Shown here: piece after piece, positions 1 to 60,594 of the stretch
How positions within the stretch are numbered: position 1 is the stretch's first letter
Layout of the letters: every line of letters starts with the position of its first letter
From: Eledone cirrhosa
Lineage: Eukaryota
Direction: 5' to 3'
Assembly: GCA_964016885.1 (NCBI GenBank)
Contig: OZ024758.1
Location: 30,132,001-30,196,000, forward strand
DNA: 64,000 nucleotides
Translations under genes and position numbers: made by a program
Notes under the pieces: generated by a model
What the model was told of the DNA's origin: nothing
Database searches by the model: none
The model's input: only the letters and a program-made list of their open reading frames with translations

Positions 1-451
1 TATATATATTCAGTATATATATATATTCAGTACTATACGAACATGCCAGACAACAACACGACGGTAACATAGACAACATAGAAATGACCCAGCAGATAGG
101 CAAATCAGAGAGGCCAATGAAATAGAACTTAGAAGGCCAAGGCTAAACAGAAAGAATGAATGGAATAACAACAACACCCAAACAAACAACACTGACCTAA
201 GAGAAGTATAAATAAATAGATAAATAAATACATACACAAGCACAATAACAACAAACACATATAAACACACACACTAGTAAAGATAGAATACATTAACCAA
301 TACACAGTCACCCAATCACGAACACACATCAAACAAAACACTATACATACACGCATGCGCAAAGAAGACAAAATAAAATAAACAAATAAATAAATATATA
401 AACAGACTAAATAAAGATGGCGTAGAAAATACAATGCAACGGGAGGAAACA

Positions 452-505
452 ATAGCACCACTGACGATGTTGCAGATGTGCAACGAAAGAACTTTGATAA
501 ACTAT
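452..505 (+). ncRNA. Minimal hammerhead ribozyme motif (family A)
   Basis: CTGACGA(461-467)-T-GTTGCA-gatg-TGCAAC-GAAA(485-488)-GAAC-TT; perfect 6-bp stem II; partial stem I atag/ctat. Confidence 0.75.
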
Positions 506-692
506 ATATATGTGTTTGCGTCTATATTGTATCTGTATTATTTTTGACCGTTGGTCAGTCAATGGCAACATTGAGGACCGAATAAATTAGATTACCGATA
601 TAAAAGACACAGAAGCGAAAACCAACCAAACAGTGAGTGTGTTCTGTTATTAATTCTGGCAATATTACACAAATATGACCCTCCCCAAGTAT

Positions 693-732
<40 letters not shown>

Positions 733-9144: not shown

Positions 9145-9342
9145 AATATGGTTTTATAAATATAGTTTCCATTTATTAATATCGTATATATATATATATA
9201 TATTAAAGTGTTAAACAATATTCAATGATTATGTCAAAGAATGAGTTTTACAGTAGATTGGAAGCACTCAACGGGAAAATAATTTTCTGGAGTTATTAAT
9301 ATTAACATATAAGTATTAATAAAATAGATGTTCTTTTGATCA

Positions 9343-9405
9343 ATTACATTTTATTAAACATATTTCGGATGTACAACAGTACGTCCTCATCAGACAAAAT
9401 ATAAT
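9343..9405 (-). ncRNA. Hammerhead motif (family E), left arm of palindrome 9307-9589
   Basis: Reverse complement of 9491-9553. Confidence 0.75.
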
Positions 9406-9490
9406 GATACATGACATACCCTGAGATGTTAAATGGTTAAGATCTTGATTAAATCTTAACCATTTAACATCTCAGGGTATGTCATGTATC

Positions 9491-9553
9491 ATTATATTTC
9501 GTCTGATGAGGACGTACTGTTGTACATCCGAAATATGTATAATAAAATGTAAT
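9491..9553 (+). ncRNA. Hammerhead motif (family E), right arm
   Basis: attatatttcgt-CTGATGA-GGAcGTAC-tgtt-GTACaTCC-GAAA-tatgta-TA-ataaaatgtaat. Confidence 0.8.
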
Positions 9554-9613
9554 TGATCAAAAGAACATCTATTTTATTAATACTTATATATGTGTGTTCA
9601 TTCATTAATAAAT

Positions 9614-14131: not shown

Positions 14132-14711
14132 CCCTTTAGCATTCACATTACTCTATATATACTATTGTATTTTCATGGTAAAGGCTTTACCTCGCACAAT
14201 ATCTCACATAACATTCACATTACTCTATATATACTATTGTATTTTCATGGAAAAGGCTTTACCTCGCACAATATCTCACATAACATTCACATTACTCTAT
14301 ATATACTATTGTATTTTCATGGTAAAGGCTTTACCTCGCACAATATCTCACATAACATTCACATTACTCTATATATACTATTGTATTTTCATGGAAAAGG
14401 CTTTACCTCGCACAATATCTCACATAACATTCACATTACTCTATATATACTATTGTATTTTCATGGTAAAGGCTTTACCTCGCACAATATCTCACATAAC
14501 ATTCACATTACTCTATATATACTATTGTATTTTCATGGTAAAGGCTTTACCTCGCATAATTATCTCACATAATAGCAAATCTATGAGATTTTGAAAGTAT
14601 TTATTTTGAGAACAATACCTTAACATCAGTTTGAGTGGCCAGTTACAGCCAGTTTCAACAGAAAAAGGTAGAGAATTCCGGCCGGTTTTGGCCGGTTTGA
14701 ACATTAAAGGG
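14132..14711. mobile_element. piggyBac-type MITE with internal 72-bp array (~6 copies)
   Basis: TTAA|CCCTTTA ... TAAAGGG|TTAA. Confidence 0.85.
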
Positions 14712-17556: not shown

Positions 17557-17764
17557 TTTGAAATTTAGTAGAAATAGAAGCTTTTGCCGTATTTTGACTT
17601 CTGAAATTACCCTGATAGTGGGGTTTAAAAACCTCTAAATGGAAAAGGATGTACATGTATGTCAATACTCATCCTTTTCCATTTAGAGGGTTTTAAGCCC
17701 CACTATCAGGGTAATTTCATAAGTCAAAATATGGCAAAAGCTTCTATTTCTACTAAATTTCAAA
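17557..17764. repeat. Foldback inverted repeat (~95-bp arms, ~19-nt spacer)
   Basis: tttgaaatttagtagaaatagaagc...ggatg versus catcc...gcttctatttctactaaatttcaaa. Confidence 0.85.
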
Positions 17765-23657: not shown

Positions 23658-24630
23658 CCCTTTACCATTTACATTACTCTATATATACTATTGTATTTTC
23701 ACAGTAAAGACTTTACCTCACATAATATCTCACATAACATTTACATTACTCTATATATACTATTGTATTTTCACAGTAAAGGCTTTACCTTACATAATAT
23801 CTCACATACCATTTACATTACTCTATATATACTATTGTATTGTCACAGTAAAGGCTTTACCTCACATAATATCTCACATAACATTTACATTACTCTATAT
23901 ATACTATTGTATTTTCACAGTAAAGGCTTTACCTCACATAATACCTCACATAACATTTACATTACTCTATATATACTATTGTATTTTCACAGTAAAGGCT
24001 TTACCTCACATAATATCTCACATAACATTTACATTACTCTATATATACTATTGTATTGTCACAGTAAAGGCTTTACCTCACATAATATCTCACATAACAT
24101 TTACATTACTCTATATATACTATTGTATTGTCACAGTAAAGGCTTTACCTCACATAATATCTCACATAACATTTACATTACTCTATATATACTATTGTAT
24201 TTTCACAGTAAAGGCTTTACCTTACATAATATCTCACATACCATTTACATTACTCTATATATACTATTGTATTGTCACAGTAAAGGCTTTACCTCACATA
24301 ATATCTCACATAACATTTACATTACTCTATATATACTATTGTATTTTCACAGTAAAGGCTTTACCTCACATAATATCTCACATAACATTTACATTACTCT
24401 ATATATACTATTGTATTTTCACAGTAAAGGCTTTACCTTACATAATATCTCACATACCATTTACATTACTCTATATATACTATTGTATTTTTACAGTAAA
24501 GACTTTACCTCACATAATATCTCACATAACATTTACATTACTCTATATATACTATTGTATTGTCACAGTAAAGGCTTTACCTCACATAATATTAAATCTA
24601 TGAGATTTTGATATTATTTATTTTGAGAAT
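23658..24630. mobile_element. piggyBac-type MITE (truncated) with 72-bp array, ~13 copies
   Basis: Same 72-bp unit; source of the 306-aa repeat ORF. Confidence 0.85.
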
Positions 24631-25255
24631 GTAAGTGTCCAGAAGATGAAATAAAGAAAGGCGATGTACATCTCCTTGTTCTCCTCCTCTTTCAATCTTT
24701 TCTATATTTCAATCTGCCTGTCACCCACCTTGTGGAGTGTCTCTCTGTTGACCACTGGCCACTGGTCTCTGTCCTCTGAGGCATTTTTGACCATTGATGT
24801 CTTTGACAGCATTTAGCTGTTTTAACAACTGTGCTAGCGATGAGTTTTCTCATTTTTATATGTATTCAAATAAACTCTCGCTTCGTCTCAATCAGAGACA
24901 ATATTGGTTTTTCCTTTTATATATATATATATTTATATATATATATATATATATATAGAAGACCTGACTCCTCACGGGTACAAGCTGAAGCATATAGACA
25001 ATATGCCCCCACATCCTCCCACGGCAAAGTGGTCGTGGAGGTGCCACGGCAAAAAAGCACCCAGCGCTCACCGTAAATGAGGTTGGTGTTAGGAAGGGCA
25101 TCCTGCTGTAGAAATCAAGCCAGAACCAGTTCCTGTATGAACAAGACAAGGTTAGCTGACCGGACACTGCCCACAAGACAACCCGTCTAACCCATGCTAG
25201 CGTGGAAGAACGGACGTAAAACGGTGATGATGATGATCATATATATATATATTTT

Positions 25256-25557: not shown

Positions 25558-25757
25558 TACCAAAACACAGCCATCATAACTGCTTTTCACTAAAAGGTGT
25601 GCACTCTCAACAGCTGGTTGCAGTTGTGCTACTGCAATTCGGTAAATTCATTGAGTGAGCTAGATGTTGGCCGAGGACTTGACATAATATCACCGATCTT
25701 CGTTACATTTATATATATATATATATAGAGAGAGAGATTTAAAAGAATCAAAGTTTA

Positions 25758-25848
25758 TTTGCATATTACAATTGTTTTGATATCAGCTCAGGGTACAATC
25801 AAGGTGACTGGGCCCAAGTCTTTTTCGAGATCTCGTCAGATGTGCAAA
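25758..25848 (-). ncRNA. Degenerate long-stem-II hammerhead (family F), left arm
   Basis: Inverted arm of palindrome 25745-26038. Confidence 0.45.
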
Positions 25849-25933
25849 GACACATCATGTATACATATTTATACAGTAGAGCTTTAAGAAAACAGATAAA
25901 TTCTACTTGTTACATATGTATATATGATGTGTC

Positions 25934-26024
25934 TTTGCACACCTGACGAGATCTCGAAAAAGACTTGCGCCCAGTCACCTTGATTCTACCCTGAGCTAAT
26001 ATCAAAACAATTGTAATATGCAAA
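25934..26024 (+). ncRNA. Degenerate long-stem-II hammerhead (family F), right arm
   Basis: tttgcacac-CTGACGA-gatctc...aatatc-AAAA-caattg-TA-atatgcaaa; GAAA box reads AAAA. Confidence 0.45.
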
Positions 26025-27443
26025 TAAACTTTGGTTCCCTTACTACAATTAACCACTCGACTGTAAAGTAGAAGTGGAACCTGTTTTTACTTTAGTCAAA
26101 ACTGGGACAAACTGAAGTGTTTTGCTCAGGAATACAATGTAATGGCTGGCATAATATTTAACAATTTAAGTCTGAAATAAAATATTTCCATATTTCTGTT
26201 TACCATGCTGCCATAACAAGTGGAAACAAAGAACTCTTGACAGAAATGGTGAAGTTTCAGTTTCGAATAAGTTAATGTGTGTGTGAACAGGACTATATCC
26301 CATATCACTTTCCAACATATTTATTTGGGGAAGTTAATAAATCCTGATTTAATGGATTTACATGCTGGAGAAATTGTTTTTTTTAAACTGGTTGTTCTTC
26401 CTACCATTAACCACTCACTATGAAGTAGAAGTAGGACCTATTTTTGCTCAGTTAAGTCAACCGAAGCAAGCAGAATTAATTACCTTGTTCACGGTACTAA
26501 TCAGCACTTATTTAACCAGCTTCAGTGGGATTTGAACTCAGAATAGCGTGATGTAAAACTAGAGGGTTGGCTGAAAAGTTCATAGGCTGACCAATATACT
26601 CTCAAGGAATGATCAAATGAGGTTTAGTTTTTAACATTAGTTCCTGGAAAGAAACAATGTGGTTATTAATAAGATGAGTTGAAATTAATGCATGCAAGAT
26701 TTCACAGCTCTAGCATCACTCCTTCATAATCAGCCTATGAACTTTTCAGCCCACCTTCATAGTGATGATTTAAGTCTTGGCTACTTCAACACCTCTAAAC
26801 TAATAACAAACATTGATTTCTCACATTGGTAAAAAAATAGCTGAGATTTATTCTATTGACCCTGGAGAAATTAGAGGTAAAGTTGACCTGGTAAAGTTGG
26901 CCGGGTAAAATTTAACCTACCATACATACTCGAATATAAACCGACCCCATTATGTCTGAGAAATGAGCAAAAATCCAAACCTTATTTATTTAAAATTTAA
27001 TGGTGAAAATCATCAAAATATTGTCCCCAAATATAAACAGACCCACTTCTACCATCGATTTTCTTTTTTTTTTTTTTTTTTTTTTTTTTTGGTTACATAT
27101 TCCTCACTTATCATTTATACTCAAATAAAAGCTATGTTTAAGGTTGAAACTAAATACTATAAAGATTGCCACAATATCATTATTATAACTTCATTTCCTA
27201 AGTGAAGAAATGTTAATAAAATTTCAGTTATTTTTAAAATATAAATCAAGAATTAAAAAACAGAACAAAAACAAAACAAAACAAAACAAAATAAAAGGAT
27301 AAATCCAAAATCTGATATATAAGCAAAGTTTTTAAGCCAATAATTTAATTAGTTTCTGTTTTCTGGCTCAGTAACTTCACTGGTGTAAGAAATATATATT
27401 TAAATTATGAGTAGTGCAGTCTTCTGTATCCAAGTTATATATA

Positions 27444-33004: not shown

Positions 33005-36000
33005 ATCATCATCACCATCATCATCATCATCATCGTTTAACGTCCATCTTCCACGCTTGCATGGGTTTGGACGGGAGTTTTCCCACTTGAGGCAAGAGTG
33101 GTTGTCTTGCTCGCATAGGACTGTCTGGCAGGTTTTCTACAGCTGGATGCCCTTCCTAACACCAACCACGTTTACAGTGTGGACTGGGAGGTTTTTACCG
33201 CGTTACCTACACGACCACATTACAGCGTGGACTGTGTGTTTTTTTGTCGTGACACCTACACGACCTCATTTGTTCGGACTGGATGTTGTGGTACCAACAT
33301 AACTTTACATTGAAAGGGGTGGTGTGGATGGGGTGGGGGTAGTGGGACGGGAGTGTATTTTTGTTAGAGGTGCCTACTGACTAGTAGGTTTCACTTTGTA
33401 CTTAGGTAAGGCGGGTCTTCTGTATTACTGTGTAGCGCCAAAGATCTCAGTCCAGTGACATTGTCTTGGAGAGGTGTAAGTGTGTGAGGTCGGAATCTTT
33501 CAAGTTGTCCCAGGTTTTTCTGGGTCTGCCTACTCCGTGGCTACCGTCTATTTTTATTGGCCTGCACTTTTTTATACAGCTGTCGTCTTTCATGTGCATC
33601 ACGTGACCATACCAACGTAGTCTTCTCTCGAGTAAACAACATCTGATCCCTCTTATTTCTAATTTTTCCCTTAGTTCATTTATGCTTTGCCGTTCACGTA
33701 TATTACTATTACACATCCAGCAGAGCATGCAAGCTTCGTTCCTCTCCAGTCTGCGTATATCCTCTGCACACAATGCCCAGGTCTCACTGCCATGTAACAT
33801 TGCTGTTCGTATGCAGGCATCATACAGCCTGCCTTTCATTTTTAGAGAGAACCCTTTAGCGGCTAATAGTGGTATAAGCTCTCTGAACTTTTTCCATCCA
33901 GTTCTGACTCTAGCTACTGTACTTTCAGAGCACCTTCCACCACTGCTGATTTTGTCGCCCAAGTAATGGAAGGTGTCCACTATTTCTATAGAACCATCTG
34001 TGCAATGGAATGAGCTAGTATTCTGTGGGCACTTGCTGCTACTTATTGCACCAGAGCACCGGCCACATATAAAATCTATGTTCTTAGTTAGCTTACTTGT
34101 GATCCCACTACATCTTTTATGCACCCATACTTTGCATTTGGGACATAAAATGGAGTTTCTACCTACTCCTTTCCTACACACTGAGCATGGCCATTTCCCG
34201 GATGGGACCGGTGCCCTATTTTCCTTCCTACAAACTAGAACTTTAGTCTTAGAGAGGTTAATTTTAAGGCCTTTTGATTCTAGGCCATGCTTCCATGTTT
34301 GGAATTTCTTCTCTATTTCAGCCATTGATTCAGCTACGAGCGTTAGATCATCTGCGTATAGGAGTTCCCATGGGCAGCCGGTCTTGAACTCCACTGTTAT
34401 AGCCTGAAGGGCAATAATAAATAGTAGGGGGCTAAGAACGGAGCCCTGATGAACACCAACTTTTACGCTAAACTCTTCACTATATTCGTTGTTAATTCTA
34501 ACCTTGCTGACTGTTTCTTTATACATGGCTTGTATAGCTCTCACAAGCCATTTATCAACACCTAGTTTTCTAAGAGCCTACCAGATAATGGAACGGGGGA
34601 CTCTGTCAAAGGCTTTCTCCAAGTCGACAAAAGCTAAGTATAGGGGTTTACTTTTAGCTAGGTACTTCTCCTGTAGTTGTACAATGAAAAGAGCGTCTGT
34701 GGTACTTTTACCTGACACAAACCCGAACTGCATTTCATCTAGATCAATTCGCTCTCTGATTAGTTGCGCTATTACTTTTTCTGTGACTTTCATGACCTGG
34801 TCGATTAATTTAATGCCTCTATAGTTACCCCTATCTAGGGCATCTCCTTTACCCTTGTAGCAGTTAATGATGATGCTGCTACGCCAGTCCTTCGGAACAA
34901 CCCCATTCTGTATGACTTGATTTACTATCCGGGTGACCATGGTATGTCCCGCCGTTCCAGAAGCTTTCAGCATTTCAGCAACTATTTCCGAAGGCCCAGC
35001 CGCCTTACCCGTCTTCATATCTTTGATTGCCTTACTTATTATACGACCTTCGACTAACACTGCTGGTCCCTCTATTGGATCGATGTGGGGGAGACTGTCT
35101 TTCTTCCATTTATTCTCCTCATTTAGTAGCCTTTCGTAGTGACACTTCCAAGCTACCTTCTTATCAGCGTCAGTGATGGCAAGTACACCATCATCATTAA
35201 GGACACACTTCTCCCTGACAATATCACGGTTTTCCTTGACACATTGCCTAGCAATCCTGAACACCTCACGTTTTTGGTCCTCGCGTTGTAGAACATGCTT
35301 GAACTTTCTTTCCTCTGCTTCCCTTCTTGCGAAGTACACTTGTCTCCTAGCTTCCCTCCTGGCCACTTGATAGTCTTCTCTACTTCCCCCATCCCACCAT
35401 ACTTTCCAAGCCTGCTTTTTGGCCTTAATTGACTCCTCCACCTTACTGTTCCACCACCACGTTACTCTCCTCCTGCCTATAGGCCTGCTCCAGCCACAGA
35501 CTTCATCTGCTGCCATCAGCAGGTTTGCTTTCAGGAATTCCCACTGTTCCTCTATATTGTTCGACTCTAAATGCTCTTCCTTACTGTCGAAAGCATCAAG
35601 TAATATGCTTTTAAATTTATTACTGGCTGTGGGGTCCTTTAGCTTCCATATTTTTCTCCTGAGGATAGTCCTCTTCTGTTGTCGAGTATGTCTCGTCCTG
35701 ACTATGAGGTCGCTAATTATCAGTCTATGTTGGGAGGTGCATTCTTCATGGGGGAGGGATTTAGTGTTAACAACAGACACTCTGTCACGTCTTCTGGTAA
35801 GGATATAATCTACCTGGCTTGTGTGTTCCCCCGATCTATAGGTGATCAAGTGATTGTCTCGTTTTTTGAAGTTAGTGTTACAGATAGTTAGGTTATTTGC
35901 GTCACAGAATTCCAGGATTCTGGAGCCTTCCTCATTTCTAGTACCAAACCCATAGCCTCCATGGATTCTGTCATAGCCGTCACAATGTTGTCCAACGTGA

Positions 36001-36203
36001 CCGTTTAGGTCGCCAGCAATAATTATATAGTCACTGTCGGTTATTTGGGAGGTAGTGAGCATCAGTGTCTCATAGAATCTGTCTTTTATAGTGCCAGGCA
36101 GTCCGGATTGGGGTCCGTACGCAGATATTACTGTCACAGTGGTTCTATTTAGAACAAGTCTTATTTTAATTATTCTGTCATTCACTCTATTTAAGTCTAT
36201 TAT
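33005..36203 (-). mobile_element. RTE-clade non-LTR retrotransposon, 5'-truncated
   Basis: APE-RT ORF, 3'UTR and (GAT)n tail at 33005-33034. Confidence 0.95.
33447..36185 (-). pseudogene. RTE ORF (APE endonuclease + reverse transcriptase) broken by one in-frame TAG at 34578-34580
   Basis: APE motifs AGDLNGHVG, SQVDYIL, SQHRL; RT motifs NYRGIKL, QFGF, FVDLEKAFD, GVHQGSVLSP, YADD; the two listed ORFs are in the same frame. Confidence 0.92.
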
Positions 36204-38055
36204 ATTTGTGTATATGTGTGTACACTAGTGTGTATATGTGTGTATATATATGTGTGTATATTTGTGTATATGTGTGTACACTAGTGTGTATATATGTATG
36301 TGTGTGTATGTGTGTGTACACTAGTGTGTATATATATATGTGTGTGTATGTTTATATATGCGTGTATGTATATGTATGCATATATGATATGTGGGTATGT
36401 ATATATGTGTGTATATATATATATATGTGTGTATATATGTATGCATACATATTTTGTATGTGTGTGTATATATATATATATGTGCATATATGTGTCTGTA
36501 TAGTATATGTATATGTATGTATATGTATGTGTGCATAAATGTGTGGTATATATATGTGTATATATATATGTATATATAAGTATCTGTATGTGTGTATAGG
36601 TGTGAAAAAAAGGAGTGACATGGTGAGTCTATTAGAGTTAATTAACGAGAGTATTTTAAATATTACATCTATATCACCTACATACTGCTTCCTGCCTCAG
36701 TCTGCTTTGCATGTTTAATTAAGCGCACGCACACCATGCACATATACATATACCAGTGCATTCATACACTTGACAGCATCATTTCATCATCATCATTTTA
36801 CGTCTGCTTTTCCCTCCTTGCAAGGGTGGGACGGGAACTGATTCTGGCCTGATTTCTACAGCTGGATGCCCTTCCTAACACCAACCCCAATTACAGTGAG
36901 TGCTTGGTGCTTTTTTGCCGTGGAACCTTCATGACCACTTTGCAGTGGAATGATAGGGACCCCAGTCCCTATCATCTCATTTCTACAGCTGAGTAAACTG
37001 GAGCAATGTGAAATAAAGTGTCTTGCTCAAGGAAACAACACATCACCCGGTCTGAGAATTGAACTCACAACCTTTTGATTGCAAGCCCAATGCTCTAACC
37101 ACTAAGCCATGTGCCTCCACACCATATACATATATATATATATATAATAATTGTTTCTACTTTAGACACAAGGCCAGCAATTACCCAGTGCATTACTGGT
37201 ACTTTATTTTATCGACCCCGTAAGGATGAAAAGGCAGAGTTAACCTCGGCGGGATTTGAATTCAGACCATAAAGGGACGTAACTCTTTGCTGCAAAGCAT
37301 GGCGTCCGACTCTCTAGCGATACTGCCAATCCACAAGGAGTTGACGGACCCAGCATATTTATCAATGCCAGTACCGGTTGTATTTCAGCGTACTCAATAG
37401 GTAATGTAAGATACATTCCCAGAGTATACACATAGTTGAGGCAAGTTGGGTCAGGTGACCGTGTCTCGCTCATATAGGACTGTTTCCGGCTAGTTTTCTA
37501 CGGCTGGATGCCCTTCCTAGCGCCAACAACATTTACAGTGTGTGCTGGGTGCTTTGTACCATGTCTCCTACGTGACCACTTATATATATATATATCATCA
37601 TCATCTTCATTTTACGTCCACTTTTCCCTGCTTGCAAGGGTGGGACGGGAACTGATTCTGGCTTGATTTCTACAGCTGGATGCCCTTCCTAAAACCAACC
37701 TCATTTACAGTGAGTGCTGGGTGCTTTTTTGCCGTAGCACCTCCACGACCACTTTGCAGTGGAATGATAGGGACCCCAGTCCCTATCATCTCATTTCTAC
37801 AGCTGAGTAAACTATATATATATACACACACACACACATACACATACAAACTGATGCATATGCATACATAACAACATACATATATACATACTGCCACTCC
37901 TATATACATTCCAATGTACAAGCCCACCAACAAACTTTTGTGTAGCTACTTGGTTTGCCATAAACAATATAGTGAACACATTTTCTTCAAATGACTCCTA
38001 GCTTGCACTTTAACCCTTTTGTTACCATATTTCCAACAAAACATACTGTCTATAA

Positions 38056-41000
38056 CGGTGGTGTTTGTTTTGAAAGGTTTTTGATATGAATTCACGTGTT
38101 AAAACAGATGTTATATTTGGGGAGAGCCATGTTGTTATAATGTTGCCAGAAATATATAGTAAAACACACTCACTGTATTTGGGGAGAGCCATGTTGTTAT
38201 AATGTTGCCAGAAATATATAGTAAAACACACTCACTGTATTTGGGGAGGGCCATGTTGTTATAATGTTGCCAGAAATAGATAGTAAAACACACTCACTGT
38301 ATTTGGGGAGAGCCATGTTGTTATAATGTTGCCAGAAATAGATAGTAAAACACACTCACTGTATTTGGGGAGAGCCATGTTGTTATAATGTTGCCAGAAA
38401 TAGATAGTAAAACACACTCACTGTATTTGGGGAGAGCCATGTTGTTATAATGTTGCCAGAAATATATAGTAAAACACACTCACTGTATTTGGGGAGGGCC
38501 ATGTTGTTATAATGTTGCCAGAAATATATAGTAAAACACACTCACTGTATTTGGGGAGAGCCATGTTGTTATAATGTTGCCAGAAATAGATAGTAAAACA
38601 CACTCACTGTATTTGGGGAGAGCCATGTTGTTATAATGTTGCCAGAAATAGATAGTAAAACACACTCACTGTATTTGGGGAGAGCCATGTTGTTATAATG
38701 TTGCCAGAAATATATAGTAAAACACACTCACTGTATTTGGGGAGGGCCATGTTGTTATAATGTTGCCAGAAATATATAGTAAAACACACTCACTGTATTT
38801 GGGGAGAGCCATGTTGTTATAATGTTGCCAGAAATAGATAGTAAAACACACTCACTGTATTTGGGGAGAGCCATGTTGTTATAATGTTGCCAGAAATAGA
38901 TAGTAAAACACACTCACTGTATTTGGGGAGAGCCATGTTGTTATAATGTTGCCAGAAATATATAGTAAAACACACTCTCTGTATTTGGGGAGAGCCATGT
39001 TGTTATTATGTTGCCAGAAATATATAGTAAAACACACTCACTGTATTTGGGGAGGGCCATGTTGTTATTATGTTGCCAGAAATATATAGTAAAACACACT
39101 CACTGTATTTGGGGAGAGCCATGTTGTTATTATGTTGCCAGAAATATATAGTAAAACACACTCTCTGTATTTGGGGAGAGCCATGTTGTTATTATGTTGC
39201 CAGAAATATATAGTAAAACACACTCTCTGTATTTGGGGAGAGCCATGTTGTTATAATGTTGCCAGAAATATATAGTAAAACACACTCACTGTATTTGGGG
39301 AGAGCCATGTTGTTATTATGTTGCCAGAAATATATAGTAAAACACACTCTCTGTATTTGGGGAGAGCCATGTTGTTATTATGTTGCCAGAAATATATAGT
39401 AAAACACACTCACTGTATTTGGGGAGGGCCATGTTGTTATTATGTTGCCAGAAATATATAGTAAAACACACTCACTGTATTTGGGGAGAGCCATGTTGTT
39501 ATAATGTTGCCAGAAATAGATAGTAAAACACACTCACTGTATTTGGGGAGAGCCATGTTGTTATAATGTTGCCAGAAATAGATAGTAAAACACACTCACT
39601 GTATTTGGGGAGAGCCATGTTGTTATAATGTTGCCAGAAATATATAGTAAAACACACTCACTGTATTTGGGGAGAGCCATGTTGTTATTATGTTGCCAGA
39701 AATATATAGTAAAACACACTCACTGTATTTGGGGAGAGCCATGTTGTTATAATGTTGCCAGAAATATATAGTAAAACACACTCACTGTATTTGGGGAGAG
39801 CTATGTTGTTATAATGTTGCCAGAAATAGATAGTAAAACACACTCACTGTATTTGGGGAGAGCCATGTTGTTATAATGTTGCCAGAAATAGATAGTAAAA
39901 CACACTCACTGTATTTGGGGAGGGCCATGTTGTTATAATGTTGCCAGAAATAGATAGTAAAACACACTCACTGTATTTGGGGAGAGCTATGTTGTTATAA
40001 TGTTGCCAGAAATAGATAGTAAAACACACTCACTGTATTTGGGGAGAGCCATGTTGTTATAATGTTGCCAGAAATATATAGTAAAACACACTCACTGTAT
40101 TTGGGGAGAGCCATGTTGTTATAATGTTGCCAGAAATATATAGTAAAACACACTCACTGTATTTGGGGAGAGCTATGTTGTTATAATGTTGCCAGAAATA
40201 GATAGTAAAACACACTCACTGTATTTGGGGAGGGCCATGTTGTTATAATGTTGCCAGAAATAGATAGTAAAACACACTCACTGTATTTGGGGAGAGCCAT
40301 GTTGTTATAATGTTGCCAGAAATATATAGTAAAACACACTCACTGTATTTGGGGAGGGCCATGTTGTTATAATGTTGCCAGAAATAGATAGTAAAACACA
40401 CTCACTGTATTTGGGGAGAGCTATGTTGTTATAATGTTGCCAGAAATAGATAGTAAAACACACTCACTGTATTTGGGGAGAGCCATGTTGTTATAATGTT
40501 GCCAGAAATATATAGTAAAACACACTCACTGTATTTGGGGAGAGCCATGTTGTTATAATGTTGCCAGAAATATATAGTAAAACACACTCACTGTATTTGG
40601 GGAGAGCTATGTTGTTATAATGTTGCCAGAAATAGATAGTAAAACACACTCACTGTATTTGGGGAGGGCCATGTTGTTATAATGTTGCCAGAAATAGATA
40701 GTAAAACACACTCACTGTATTTGGGGAGGGCCATGTTGTTATAATGTTGCCAGAAATAGATAGTAAAACACACTCACTGTATTTGGGGAGGGCCATGTTG
40801 TTATAATGTTGCCAGAAATAGATAGTAAAACACACTCACTGTATTTGGGGAGAGCCATGTTGTTATAATGTTGCCAGAAATATATAGTAAAACACACTCA
40901 CTGTATTTGGGGAGAGCCATGTTGTTATAATGTTGCCAGAAATAGATAGTAAAACACACTCACTGTATTTGGGGAGGGCCATGTTGTTATAATGTTGCCA

Positions 41001-41315
41001 GAAATAGATAGTAAAACACACTCACTGTATTTGGGGAGGGCCATGTTGTTATAATGTTGCCATAAATATATAGTAAAACACACTCACTGTTTGGTTTTCG
41101 CTTCAGTATATTTTTATATTTCTATAAATAATTTAACTGGCAATCAATGTTTATCATTGATTTACCAACAGTTAAAAGATATAAATATAGATATAGTTTC
41201 TCAGCTAAATTATTTATAGAAATATAAAAATATACTGAAGCAAAAACCAAACAAAATAGTGTGTTTTACTATATTTCTGGCAATATTAGAACAACATGAC
41301 TCTCCCCAAATATAA
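38056..41315. mobile_element. Family-A foldback element hosting the 62-bp array
   Basis: 41030-41135 is inverted at 41205-41315; homologous to 540-697 and 51770-51895; actgtctataa direct repeat at 38045 and 41316. Confidence 0.65.
38116..41090. repeat. 62-bp minisatellite, ~48 copies
   Basis: Unit tttggggagagccatgttgttataatgttgccagaaatatatagtaaaacacactcactgta. Confidence 0.95.
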
Positions 41316-41814
41316 CACTGTCTATAATTTTGAAAATTTGGAGGGATTTACTAATACAAATAACATTTCATTAAGATGGTGTTTGGAACTTAACAAAGGC
41401 TCTTAAATAAAATTATGATGGCAGGTTAACATAAAGAACGATGTGCTCAATAGGGTAAAGACCCTTAAATGACAGAGAAAGAAGTTAGTATTTGATCCGT
41501 CTTTTAAGGGTCGTCACCCTATTTTATAAGTTATTTTATAGCATCTCTGCGCTTGAGCACGTCATCTTTTATATTCTCTATATTCTCAGTAGTCCTGGGG
41601 TCAATTCTTCCTCTCTCTGGAAGAAATCTGCTGTACTCAGACCTGGAGAGGGATGGGTTCTGCCATGCTTAAAATGCCCAAGAAACGCTGTATGTCAATG
41701 GCGCCCCTACGACTCTAAGGAGTTACGGGACCATACACACATACATGCCTATTCTCAGTACTTAAAAGTCCCAGAGATTGGCTATGTACTTGATGGACTG
41801 TAAATATAACCATA

Positions 41815-42487: not shown

Positions 42488-43660
42488 CTGGCCGTATCCA
42501 GCCAGATTTCTCTCACCCCTTTCTGATTAAACTAGTTTTAACTGGCCACTCATACTGATGTTAAAGTATTGTTCTCAAAATAAATAATATCAAAATCTCA
42601 TAGATTGGATATTATGTGAGATAAACCTCTACCATGAAGATACAATAGTATATATAGAGTAATGTAAATGTTATGTGAGGTAAAGCCTTTACTGTGAAAA
42701 TACAATAGTATATATAGAGTAATGTAAATGTTATGTGAGATATTATGTAAGGTAAAGCCTTTACTGTGAAAATACAACAGTAAATATAGAGTAATGTAAA
42801 TGCTATGTGAGATGTTATGTGAGGTAAAGCCTTTACTGTGACAATACAATAGTATATATAGAGTAATGAAAATGTTATGTGAGATATTATGTGAGGTAAA
42901 GCCTTTACTGTGAAAATACAATAGTATATATAGAGTAATGTAAATGTTATGTGAGGTATTATGTGAGGTAAAGCCTTTACTGTGAAAATACAATAGTATA
43001 TATAGAGTAATGTAAATGTTGTGAGTTAAAACCTTTACTGTGAAAATACAATAGTATATATAGAGTAATGTAAATGTTATGTGAGATATTATGTGAGTTA
43101 AAACCTTTACTGTGAAAATACAATAGTATATATAGAGTAATGTAAATGTTATGTGAGATATTATGTGAGGTAAAGCCTTTACTGTGAAAATACAATAGTA
43201 TATATAGAGTAATGTAAATGTTATGTGAGATATTATGTGAGGTAAAACCTTTACTGTGAAAATACAATAGTATATATAGAGTAATGTAAATGTTATGTGA
43301 GATATTATGTGAGGTAAAGCCCTTACTGTGAAAATACAATAGTATATATAGAGTAATGTAAATGTTATGTGAGATATTATGTGAGGTAAAGCCTTTACTG
43401 TGAAAATACAATAGTATATATAGAGTAATGTAAATGTTAGGTGAGATATTATGTGAGGTAAAGCCTTTACTGTGAAAATACAATAGTATATATAGAGTAA
43501 TGTAAATGTTAGGTGAGATATTATGTGAGGTAAAGCCTTTACTGTGAAAATACAATAGTATATATAGAGTAATGTAAATGTTATGTGAGATATTATGTGA
43601 GGTAAAGCCTTTACTGTGAAAATACAATAGTATATATAGAGTAATGTAAATGCTAAAGGG
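42488..43660. mobile_element. piggyBac-type MITE (reverse orientation) with 72-bp array, ~14 copies
   Basis: Reverse complement of the unit; AATGCTAAAGGG terminus. Confidence 0.85.
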
Positions 43661-50814: not shown

Positions 50815-51600
50815 CCCTTTATCATTTACATTACTCTATATATACTATTGTATTTTCACAGTAAAGGCTTTACCTCACATAATATCTCGCATAACATTTA
50901 CATTACTCTATATTTACTATTGTATTTTCACAGTAAAGGCTTTACCTCACATAATATCTCACATAACATTTACATTACTCTATATATACTATTGTATTTT
51001 CACAGTAAAGGCTTTACCTCACATAATATCTCACCTAACATTTACATTACTCTATATATACTATTGTATTTTCACAGTAAAGGCTTTACCTCACATAATA
51101 TCTCACCTAACATTTACATTACTCTATATATACTATTGTATTTTTACAGTAAAGGCTTTACCTCACATATCTCACCTAACATTTACATTACTCTATATAT
51201 ACTATTGTATTTTCACAGTAAAGGCTTTACCTCACATAATATCTCACCTAACATTTACATTACTCTATATATACTATTGTATTTTCACAGTAAGGGCTTT
51301 ACCTCACATAATATCTCACATAACATTTACATTACTCTATATATACTATTGTATTTTCACAGTAAAGGTTTTACCTCACATAATATCTCACATAACATTT
51401 ACATTACTCTATATATACTATTGTATTGTCACAGTAAAGGCTTTACCTCACATAATATCTCACATAACATTTACATTACTCTATATATACTATTGTATTT
51501 TCACAGTAAAGGCTTTACCTCACATAATATCACACATAATATTGAATCTATGAGATTTTGATATTTATTTTGAGAACAATACCTTTACATACATATGAGC
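50815..51600. mobile_element. piggyBac-type MITE with 72-bp array, ~10 copies
   Basis: TTAA|CCCTTTA start; same unit. Confidence 0.85.
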
Positions 51601-51885
51601 AGCAGGTTAGAGCAGTTAACAAGAATCATTAGACTCTGTCATTCAACACGTCAATAACTTCATCAAACAACAAGAGTCACTACACTGTCCTTCAGTCAAC
51701 AAGTCATTAGCCTATCAAACAAATCATGACCCCTTATTTGTCATTAAGAGGCATTGTACCCTGTCAGTCACAGTTTGGTTTGGGTTGGTTTTTCCTTCAG
51801 TATATTTTTTTATTTCTATAATTAATTCAGCTGGCAAGCAATGTGTATTATTGATTGACCAACAGTTAAAAATATAGATATAAAT

Positions 51886-51937
51886 ATAGTCTCTGAGTTC
51901 TTTCGTCACACACTTGTGACATCATCAGTGATACTAT
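51886..51937 (-). ncRNA. Hammerhead motif (family A)
   Basis: Minus strand atagtatca-CTGATGA-T-GTCACA-agtg-TGTGAC-GAAA-GAAC-TC-agagactat. Confidence 0.8.
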
Positions 51938-52051
51938 TGTGTTTGTTCCGCTGAGAGATGTCAACATGAATGGATCTATTATTTTTATCTAAAGACATTT
52001 TTTCCTATTCCATCCCACCCGTCCCCTTAATCTATTTTATTTCTCATTCTT

Positions 52052-52087
52052 TCTTCTGATGAAGGACTAGCGTCCGAAACGTTAAGA
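52052..52087 (+). ncRNA. Hammerhead motif (family B)
   Basis: tctt-CTGATGA-a-GGAC-tagc-GTCC-GAAACGTT-aaga. Confidence 0.8.
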
Positions 52088-52357
52088 CCCTCTTCCTGCT
52101 ATATCAAGCGTTAACCTAATATATCCCTTCCATATACTGTACCGATTGTGTTTTTATTTCTGTTTACCTTTTACATACACATATATATATATATATATAT
52201 ATGCAGAGGTTATATTTAATTAGTTGGGATTCAACAAGCTTAAACATTTTTATAACTGATATAAAGCACTCAACAGATTAGTGGAGGAATCTCCAACCGT
52301 TAAGGTTGTCTTTTTTTATTTCCGGGTATGTCAATATTTATTTATAAAACAAATCTG

Positions 52358-52423
52358 TATTTTATCTGATCAAAATGCACCATAATTTGCCTTGGTTTCC
52401 CTTGAAATATATATAATAAAATA
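52358..52423 (+). ncRNA. Degenerate hammerhead (family D)
   Basis: CTGATCA core variant; otherwise homologous to 60147-60212. Confidence 0.45.
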
Positions 52424-52780
52424 AATATGGTTTTATAAATATAGTTTCCATTTATTAATATATTGTATATATATATATATATATATATACATGCACAACC
52501 AAAGTTTTTAAGCTCACTGTATTACATATATGAGACTTTACATTGTTTAATAAGCAGTAACCCTAACATGGTCTCTGATTGTATTGTATATGCCATCATA
52601 TACATCTCCATTATCTACCATGTTAGTAGAAATTATATTGTTGAGGATCTATATAGGGCCCCCCAGACTGCTCAGGTTGATGCAGTTCAGGCAAAGCCAG
52701 AAGATTTGGAAGGATTTGGTTGCAGTAAAGATCAGATTAGAAATAAGAATCTAAACCTGAAGATGTTGGCCTCCTGTGAG

Positions 52781-55622: not shown

Positions 55623-55741
55623 ACACACAAGCACACACACACAAGTATATATTATACATATATATATTCAGTTCTGATGTAGCTGTTGAAATGGCAGGAG
55701 CTCAGCCGATAGGGCTCCAAAATGTTCATGTACATATATAT

Positions 55742-56001: not shown

Positions 56002-56400
56002 TCATCATCATCATCATTTAACGTCCATCTTGCACGCTTGCATGAGTCTGGACGGGAGCTTTCCCACTTGAGGCAAGATTGGTTGTCTTGCTCATATAGG
56101 ACTGTCTGGCAGGTTTTCTACGGCTGGATGCCCTTCCTAACACCAACCATGTTTACAGTGTGGACTGGGAGGTTTTTACCGTGTTACCTACACGGCCACA
56201 TTACAGCCTGGACTGTGTGTTTTTTTGTCGTGACACCTACACGACCTCGTTTGTTTCGGGCTGGATGTTGTGGTACCAACATAGCTTTACATCGAAAGGG
56301 GTGGTGTGGATGGGGTGGGGGTAGTGGGACGGGGGTGTATTTTTGTTAGAGGTGCCTACTGACTGTAGTAGGTTTTACTTTGTATTTAGGGAAGGCGGGT
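56002..56400 (-). mobile_element. RTE 3'UTR-only copy
   Basis: Matches 33005-33416. Confidence 0.85.
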
Positions 56401-56410
56401 ATATATATAT

Positions 56411-57295
56411 AGCCACAGTCAGAATGGGATGGAAAAAGTTCAGAGAGCTTATACCGCTGTTGGCCACAAAAGGTTTCTCTCTAAAAATGAAAGGCAGGCT
56501 GTATGATGCTTGTATACGAACAGCAATGTTACATGGCAGTGAGACATGGGCATTATGTGCAGAGGACCTGCGCAGACTGGAAAGGAACGAAGCATGTATG
56601 CTCCGTTGCATGTGTAATAGTAATATACGTGAACAGCAAAGCATAAATGAACTAAGTGAGAAATTAGGAATAAGAGGGATCAGATGCTGTTTACTTGAGA
56701 GAAGACTACGTTGGTATGGTCACGTGATGCGCATGAAAGATGACAGATGTATAAAAAAGTGCAGGGCGATAAAAATAGATGGAAGTTACGGAGTAGGTAG
56801 ACCCAGAAAAACCTGGGACGAACTGATAAATTCCACACCTCGCACACTGGACCGAGCTCTTTGGCGCTACGCAGTAATACAGAAGACCCGCCTTGCCTAT
56901 GTACAAAGCGAAACCTACAGTCAGTAGGCACCTCTTAACCAAATATACACCCCAATCTACTACCCCTACCCTATCTTCCCACTCCCACCAACACCACCCT
57001 CTCTCTGTAAAGTTGGTACCACAACATCCAGTCCAAATAAACGAGATAATGAGATGGAGATTGAGATCGTGTAGGTGTCATGAGAAAATACACAGTCCAC
57101 GCTGTAATGTGGTCGTGTAGGTAACATGGTAAAAAGCTCCCAGTGTTAGGAAGGGCATCCAGCCGTAGAAAACCTGCCAGATAGTCCTATATGAGCGAGA
57201 CACGGTCACCCATCCAACCTTGCCTCAAGTGGGACAACTCCCGTCTAACCCATGCTCGTGTGGAAAATGGACGTTAAACGAAGATGATGATGATG

Positions 57296-59508: not shown

Positions 59509-59645
59509 TCCGAATTAGTGTGGTATAGACAAGTACATATGTTGTTGAGGTGTATAATTTTGTCAATACTCTGATATGCCCAGTTCCTGGTTGGGTTGTT
59601 ATTTCACTGAGGAACTGGAATCATATATAACCTCTGCATATATAT

Positions 59646-59860
59646 AGGAACAAATAAGACCCCGACGGCTGAGCTCAAGCCGTTTCGACGGCTAATTCTG
59701 GACTGAATTAGCCGTCCAAATTGGACAGAATTAGCCGTCGAAACGGCTTGAGCTCAGCCGTCGGGGTCTTACTTGTTCCTATTACCCACTCTACTACCCT
59801 AAGTATTGAGTACTTTGGTGCGTTATGGTCCACCTGGTTCCTTACCACATTTCCTTCGTT
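59646..59860. mobile_element. Palindromic family-G element
   Basis: Second copy of 733-933 in the opposite orientation. Confidence 0.6.
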
Positions 59861-60021
59861 ATATATATATATATATATATATATATGCAGAGGTTATATT
59901 TAATTTGTTGGGATTCAACAAGCTTAACATTTTTTTATAACTGATATAAAGCACTCAACAGATTAGTGGAGTAAATACACAATATATTAATAAATGGAAA
60001 CTATATTTATAAAACCATATT

Positions 60022-60087
60022 TATTTTATTATACATATTTCAAGGGCCACCAAGGCAAATTATGGTGCACTTTCATCAGATAAAATA
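60022..60087 (-). ncRNA. Hammerhead motif (family D), left arm of palindrome ~59991-60242
   Basis: Reverse complement of 60147-60212. Confidence 0.6.
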
Positions 60088-60146
60088 CAATAAGCTCCAA
60101 CCGTTTCTTTCTGGGTATGTCAATATTTATTTATGAAACAAATCTG

Positions 60147-60212
60147 TATTTTATCTGATGAAAGCGCACCATAATATGCCTTGGTGGCCCTTGAAATATG
60201 TATAATAGAATA
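60147..60212 (+). ncRNA. Hammerhead motif (family D), right arm
   Basis: tattttat-CTGATGA-aagcgCACCA..TGGTGgccctt-GAAA-tatgta-TA-atagaata. Confidence 0.6.
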
Positions 60213-60594
60213 AATATGGTTTTATAAATATAGTTTCCATTTGTCCCTTTATGATCTGAGTTCAAATCCCGCCGAGGTTAACTTTGCCTTTCATCCTTAC
60301 GGGGTCGATAAAATAAAGTACCAGTAATGCACTGGGTAATTGCTGGCCTTGTGCCTAACGTAGAAACAATTAATATATTGTATATATATATATATCTCTA
60401 TATATATATATATACTCCATATATATATATATATACTCCATATACTCATACCCCCCCCACACACACACACACATATATATGTGTTACCCCCCCCCCTCTC
60501 TATCATTTGCTGATTTTCTGTCTGTGTGTCTATCCATCTCTCGTGTCTACCTCTTTTAATCATTTCCTCTTATATTCTACTTCATTATTGTTAC

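Follow-up and report, generated by a model that had tools for sequence, protein, structure and literature searches.

The inverted unit at 38109–41320 of this 64-kb window (the window being the whole 64,000-nucleotide stretch, which is repeat-rich, animal-type, perhaps octopus-like to judge by SINE motifs, of about 36% G+C and full of microsatellites and minisatellites) raises the question of whether a hammerhead ribozyme takes part in the insertion of Penelope-like elements (PLEs). The junction between the two arms of the unit coincides with the predicted cleavage site of the hammerhead carried by its family, here called family A, and the initial annotation proposed that the template RNA was cut by its own ribozyme and that reverse transcription then switched or folded back. 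What is at stake is the role of the PLE hammerhead, which is conserved, cuts poorly in vitro and is dispensable in one reconstituted system, according to the available portions of the sources (PMC4209133, PMC11167929). If the proposal were true, the junction would be the first genomic trace of PLE hammerhead cleavage during retrotransposition found in the open-access literature; it would stand against an in vitro result in which uncut RNA is the main template, and it would be measurable in any repeat-rich genome. A peak of breakpoints at the cut would place cleavage on the insertion path; the single locus 38109–41320 falls short of this, and appears as an ordinary PLE-type fold-back. The best reading, in which we place somewhat better than even confidence, is a microhomology-primed snap-back at a stop that fell on the cut by chance.

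Structure of the fold-back unit

In this unit the element's sense strand is the minus strand for the long arm, which extends over 38109–41203, as judged from alignments of the arms and of the array, and comprises the 3′ part of a pseudo-LTR of family A: it begins at the predicted cut and extends as far as the 3′ end of the element, with a minisatellite interposed. Its outer end (38109) agrees with the end of the short arm and with that of a diverged copy at 0.4 kb. The portion at 41091–41203 (minus strand) is homologous to a copy at 51.8–51.9 kb: 41091–41204 aligns to 51785–51897 with 86.8% identity over 114 nt (E 5e-34), and the homology reported in the initial annotation is real, although it starts some 15 nt later than the 51770 given there (51770–51897). 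The 5′ portion of the long arm is an unduplicated centre of 62 nt (41140–41201, minus strand), the arms aligning from 41139 and 41202, and this centre overlaps a natural hairpin at about 41132–41175 (DNA fold of −10.1 kcal/mol). The short inverted arm (41202–41320, plus strand) begins immediately, as had been claimed: from 41202 it is identical to 41088–41139 at 50 of 52 positions, and it spans the element from a point 61 nt downstream of the predicted cut, where the arm has its 5′ end, through the element's 3′ end. A fold-back is present where the initial annotation placed one (41030–41315), within a larger unit whose long arm continues through the array to 38109.

The two arms differ by about five substitutions in 116 nt, plus small gaps, and either of them diverges more from the other copies than from its opposite. 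Each arm matches the outgroup at some of the differing sites, which fits decay from one template. The unit contains no ORF, and no direct repeat abuts both of its outer ends as a target-site duplication would. The hammerhead core is missing, in agreement with the initial annotation, both from the unit and from 3 kb of flanking sequence in each direction (the best match there, with E 0.07, falls in an unrelated array), and no displaced upstream or ribozyme part of the element was found within 3 kb. These features bear on the idea that the unit is a DNA-transposon MITE or the result of two independent back-to-back insertions. The unit does have terminal inverted repeats of about 115 nt, and at 59899–60242 an inverted arm enclosed by a longer copy of the same family suggests that self-insertion occurs here; both origins are nevertheless very improbable, given the missing target-site duplication, the existence of single-armed copies of differing lengths, the lack of a displaced upstream or hammerhead part, and the fact that the arms are closer to each other than to other copies.

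The array inside the long arm (38114–41090) is a minisatellite of about 3 kb, made of 48 units of 62 bp (48.0 copies, 97%). The unit aligns to the 0.4-kb copy and to the short arm, and is the element's own 3′ segment. Six positions vary among the units, five of them in several units, the mean difference is 2.6%, and, at sites where the long arm departs from the short arm and the 0.4-kb copy alike, all units bear the long-arm letters. Since the units differ little, share variants and carry letters specific to the long arm, the array grew well after the insertion, and the long arm reaches 38109 because of this later amplification of the element's 3′ end. The same shared variants and arm-specific changes rule out that the array was written by reiterative reverse transcription at insertion. 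The founding 3′ segment is bounded by a short direct repeat, a neat case of a minisatellite born from the 3′ end of an element. Tandem amplification from PLE ends has been proposed for the non-LTR retrozymes, which are also type-I hammerhead repeats tied to PLE pseudo-LTRs (PMC7229834 and the preprint 10.64898/2026.07.22.740005, in their available parts). In these retrozymes, however, every tandem unit holds a hammerhead, whereas no match to the core was obtained in 38114–41090; the 62-bp unit, having none, makes a plain minisatellite and not a retrozyme.

The family-A hammerhead and its likeness to PLEs

The ribozyme is retained in two other family-A copies. The first (51785–51944, minus strand) reads through the cut, the homology to the family stopping near 51944 as judged from loose ends in reads, and contains a minimal type-I hammerhead at 51880–51937 (minus strand), recognised by its motif, with its core at 51928–51901. 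Core numbering assigns the predicted cut to the position after C17 at 51895, that is, to 51894/51895; the bar drawn in the initial annotation was near this site, 3 nt away. The second copy (447–696, plus strand) is diverged, with 72–76% identity, and has its core at 461–488, its predicted cut at 494/495 and a complete 3′ end followed by (TA)n. The boxes CTGATGA and GAAA are found on the minus strand at 51928–51901 and on the plus strand at 461–488.

Judged by sequence, family A has the conserved core and the three helices of a type-I hammerhead, and its self-cleavage is a prediction. Stem II has 6 bp, an extra base before it and a G–C closing pair; stem III has 2 bp and a non-palindromic AA loop. 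In folding, stem I forms in the 51.9-kb copy when the core is held open and does not form in the 0.4-kb copy, whose free fold differs from the hammerhead shape. When the two copies are compared, two of the six pairs of stem II are changed on both sides, a result equalled by 127 of 500 shuffles and not significant alone. In the first-mate-minus reads of X21, a public reduced-representation library with the same species label, C>T at 51907 (881) is paired with G>A at 51918 (852), and A>G at 51908 (868) with T>C at 51917 (1159). The paired changes in stem II across the family imply that the predicted ribozyme fold has been maintained. Rfam at its gathering threshold left the minimal hammerheads undetected and returned one tRNA-like match only. 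A plus-strand hammerhead at 52056–52079 was considered as the relevant one and discarded, as it belongs to another family and has its cut near 52083.

The minimal type-I hammerheads of metazoan PLEs share with family A the CUGANGA and GAAA boxes, the extra base before stem II, the G10.1–C11.1 pair, a stem II of 6 bp, a very short stem III and nearby pairs on opposite strands, which have been described at distances of 100–700 bp (PMC4209133, available portion). They differ in loop 3, in that the core has been lost from the fold-back unit, and in that activity is here only predicted. The likeness extends to the EN+ PLEs (Penelope/Poseidon, Neptune, Nematis): a minimal hammerhead sits in a terminal repeat on the element's sense strand, and 5′-truncated copies and a head-to-head inverted arrangement are present. 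As far as the accessible text of PMC8557442 and PMC3846280 goes, inverted 5′-truncated copies, self-priming, junction overlaps and microhomology have all been described for PLEs, and the EN+ members resemble the present unit in their unequal arms, short junction overlap, variable 3′ end, (TA)n neighbourhood and optional target duplication. Differences are the lack of an ORF in the unit, the 3-kb minisatellite that one arm has acquired from the 3′ end, and the position of the junction at a ribozyme cut, which is absent from those descriptions. The few family-A copies have their ends at either of two points separated by about 65 nt (51785 versus 41317 and 696), a distance greater than the 30–40 bp described for the optional tail of PLEs, which goes with two start sites of reverse transcription.

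The core of the 0.4-kb copy lies downstream of, and on the same strand as, the possible end of an ORF. This candidate remnant (30–208, plus strand, in two frames) is upstream of the copy, and on the strength of its motif we take it to resemble the C-terminal end of a GIY-YIG protein, as a lead only. A 47-aa stretch of it (68–208) gave no Pfam hits, no match among 1.84 billion representatives and none among 3 candidates, and its nearest named Atlas cluster has GIY-YIG on 15% of its members (score 0.80), which is again a lead; the piece upstream of it gave weak, unrelated matches only. No PLE-type reverse transcriptase was found, there was no significant protein match and the window holds no full-length copy, while pattern scans for further family copies returned none in metagenome contigs and none in prokaryote genomes. 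The unit would work like a PLE inverted insertion, to judge from its RNA and structural features, the protein being without a significant match; in structure, the fold-back is a new instance of the known head-to-head inverted form. Within the explanation that we favour by a little more than an even chance, the unit would be an old, non-coding insertion of a PLE in its usual head-to-head inverted form.

Chance stop or ribozyme cut at the junction

The TCTCA of the fold-back ends at 41203 and the inverted arm opens with CAG at 41202. These three bases (41202–41204) are common to both arms, and the overlap therefore allows the junction to be placed anywhere from 41201/41202 to 41204/41205. The consensus of loose ends in the reads gives TCTCA or TATCA as the plus-strand letters of the relatives up to the cut, and the 51.9-kb copy misses 2 nt there with respect to them (consensus behind 51894, from 29 contigs of run X5). 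Allowing for these 2 nt, the predicted cut maps to 41203/41204, inside the four-position window of ambiguity. The homology had been said to end within about 3 nt of the cleavage site; the agreement is in fact tighter, with the cut inside the CAG overlap.

How strong this coincidence is depends on the number of ends considered. The chance that a single event has its junction at the cut is 1–5% over the settings tried; with uniform stops over 130–400 nt and a 4-nt window it is 0.010–0.031, and this exact match, with its per-event coincidence of 1–3%, is what speaks against a chance stop. The probability of at least one chance match among 5–20 ends is 0.05–0.67 over all settings and about 0.2–0.5 over the plausible ones; among 10–20 ends with a 4-nt window, it is 0.10–0.47 for spans of 130–400 nt and 0.18–0.47 for a span of 130–200 nt. 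By our estimate, a class of cleavage-derived ends amounting to 5% would hardly alter the likelihood of one match in some 20 ends, and chance accounts for the coincidence in this single case about as well as cleavage does. Local microhomology, which the initial annotation named as the alternative that would count against cleavage, is present: 3 nt are shared, as would happen by chance at 12% of random joins, and this accords with either cleavage or a chance stop. Inverted matches to the cDNA end, of 1–8 nt with a mean of 4.3, are available for ends all along the arm. The notion of a thermodynamically favoured snap-back at exactly this end was rejected, the cDNA 3′ end being unpaired in the fold.

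Another way of approaching the question is to ask where other copies end. The breakpoint peak suggested in the initial annotation was sought in the 64-kb window, where 16 of 18 hammerhead-family segments run past the predicted cut, by 27–101 nt or more; the two remaining segments are the long arm, which ends at the cut, and the short arm, which ends 61 nt downstream. Five families with hammerheads supply the 18 segments (A, 4; B, 3; C, 3; D, 2; G, 6), and the proportion of 16 is biased, since a copy truncated at the cut would measure 38–63 nt in families C, D and G and could escape detection. The count excludes a weak AT-rich match (24904–24939), five simple-repeat matches at 61–62 kb, rows that repeat a copy already counted, the piece at 59899–59974 that holds upstream sequence only, a D-to-G cross match, the 48.8-kb family, and the fold-backs E, F, H and I, whose cores are uncertain. 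Three firm hammerhead fold-backs (2203–2466, 9307–9589 and 59992–60242) carry the whole core in both arms and have their junctions upstream of it.

Four of the 23 listed public runs were aligned to 51750–51990 at 80% likeness, giving 1704 X1 contigs, 8868 X21 reads, 884 X5 contigs and 7 X6 contigs; such reads are not loci, the loose ends are those listed, and alignments are broken at 51886–51896 by an (AT)n tract and the 2-nt gap of the reference. The depth of X21 is 3812 just downstream of the site versus 3458 just upstream, and its family molecules run past the cut in at least 56% of cases, when each read is placed once, and in 91% when reads are placed in pieces. X21 has stacks of loose ends at 51886 (589 reads) and at 51888 (1909 reads) whose consensus carries on into the ribozyme sequence; they arise from the (AT)n tract, which varies in length and lies some 10 nt away from the cut. 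At 51888 there is a stack in X1 too (58 contigs, agreement 0.47), for which the continuation is ambiguous. None of the three joints listed for the four runs changes strand, and as the unit's own junction is likewise unreported, sensitivity to fold-back joints is unproven. Since the same-species reads mostly run through and no fold-back stack is listed, cleavage is not what chiefly produces the 5′ ends of family A; these data are still compatible with a small peak at the cut.

A chance stop is preferred because 16 of the 18 segments and most reads pass the cut, because the three firm fold-backs have their junctions upstream of the core, and because there are precedents in the inverted insertions of PLEs and in the Anolis PLE, whose hammerhead mutants leave in vitro insertion unaffected and in which the cut coincides with neither the start nor the end of any RNA-seq read (PMC8557442, PMC3846280 and PMC11167929, in the parts available). 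Starting at the 3′ end, target-primed reverse transcription would have got through about 175 nt of the pseudo-LTR before it stopped, the position of the stop at the hammerhead cut being a coincidence. By way of the CA/CAG microhomology the cDNA end would then have primed anew 62 nt back, on itself or on a second template, and yielded a second, inverted copy of the element's 3′ end. Much later, 62 bp of one arm were amplified to 48 copies.

The cleavage reading is the less likely of the two. It supposes that, in a minority of insertions, the template RNA was cut by its hammerhead (as a dimer, and perhaps with the assistance of protein), that the reverse transcriptase ran off the new 5′ end, and that the cDNA end, ...TCA, snapped back on a TG 62 nt earlier. 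The predicted cut does lie within the CAG overlap, the priming CA would be exactly the last two bases of the run-off cDNA, and the paired changes of stem II point to a maintained ribozyme fold. Precedent exists in R2, in which the RNA 5′ end made by an HDV-like ribozyme sets the 5′ junction, the second strand is primed by microhomology, and snap-back junctions are a recognised class (PMC3774820, PMC11331408), and the Anolis PLE hammerhead does cut once protein is added (PMC11167929), as far as the available portions of these papers show. R2 differs in both ribozyme and element: its ribozyme fold is situated downstream of the cut and is retained, and as a rule a cleaved end is the mark of a full-length R2 copy, while here most copies read through. 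Against cleavage stand, besides the single event and the segments and reads that pass the site, the 2-bp stem III with its non-palindromic AA loop, the free fold of the 0.4-kb copy, and the poor cutting of minimal hammerheads in vitro (PMC4209133, available part). No report of PLE junctions at a hammerhead cut was found in the open-access literature, including the available parts of PMC7229834, PMC5625713 and the 2026 retrozyme preprint (10.64898/2026.07.22.740005). Thus, of the mechanism first proposed, the fold-back half is plausible and in print for PLEs, and the cleavage half fits the geometry of one event. That a minority of PLE insertions in this genome came from RNA which its hammerhead had cut, so that their 5′ ends and fold-back junctions lie exactly at the cut, is possible and, in our judgement, rather doubtful.

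It may also be imagined that a palindrome of greater length and symmetry, with a hammerhead in each arm like those at 2203–2466 and 9307–9589, was formed first, and that its centre was later lost by an asymmetric, microhomology-joined deletion. The centres of palindromes are unstable, the window contains near-perfect palindromes with centres of 8–9 nt, and the join has its 3-nt microhomology. Near-symmetric units persist in the window with intact centres, however, at 96–97% arm identity, and the deletion would require the same coincidence with the cut, which makes this course of events improbable. It and the MITE or double insertion are weaker than the chance stop and the cleavage of the template.

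Further repeats in the window

At least eight short fold-backs occur in the 64 kb, including 2203–2466, 9307–9589, 17557–17764 and 25745–26037, and several have cores in both arms; if transcribed, they would be a rich source of double-stranded RNA. At 59899–60242, a longer copy of family G encloses an inverted arm of the same family, which occupies the loop of a small natural hairpin (compare 52215–52460); the arrangement suggests self-insertion, or else a template switch and return. The fold-backs 821–926 and 59644–59782 belong to one family and are centred just upstream of a GAAA box; they may have folded back inside a predicted stem II, upstream of the cut. A weak relative at 55666–55708 (E 4e-5) has a hammerhead-like core. 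Another such core, at 25915–25990 and in both arms of fold-back E, has only six palindromic nucleotides between its boxes and a non-canonical stem II.

At 51785–52175, the family-A copy (minus strand) and a family-B hammerhead copy (plus strand) face each other head to head at a distance of about 40 nt, and the gap contains a portion of a third repeat, of high copy number (the read depth jumps at 51954). A broken LINE ORF with endonuclease and reverse transcriptase lies in two pieces (548 and 376 aa) at 33447–36224 on the minus strand, with a fragment at 56325–56927. Lastly, one 72-bp unit recurs in four dispersed arrays with shared flanks (14140–14572, 23666–24592, 42671–43652 and 50823–51543), which are probably a mobile element carrying an internal satellite.
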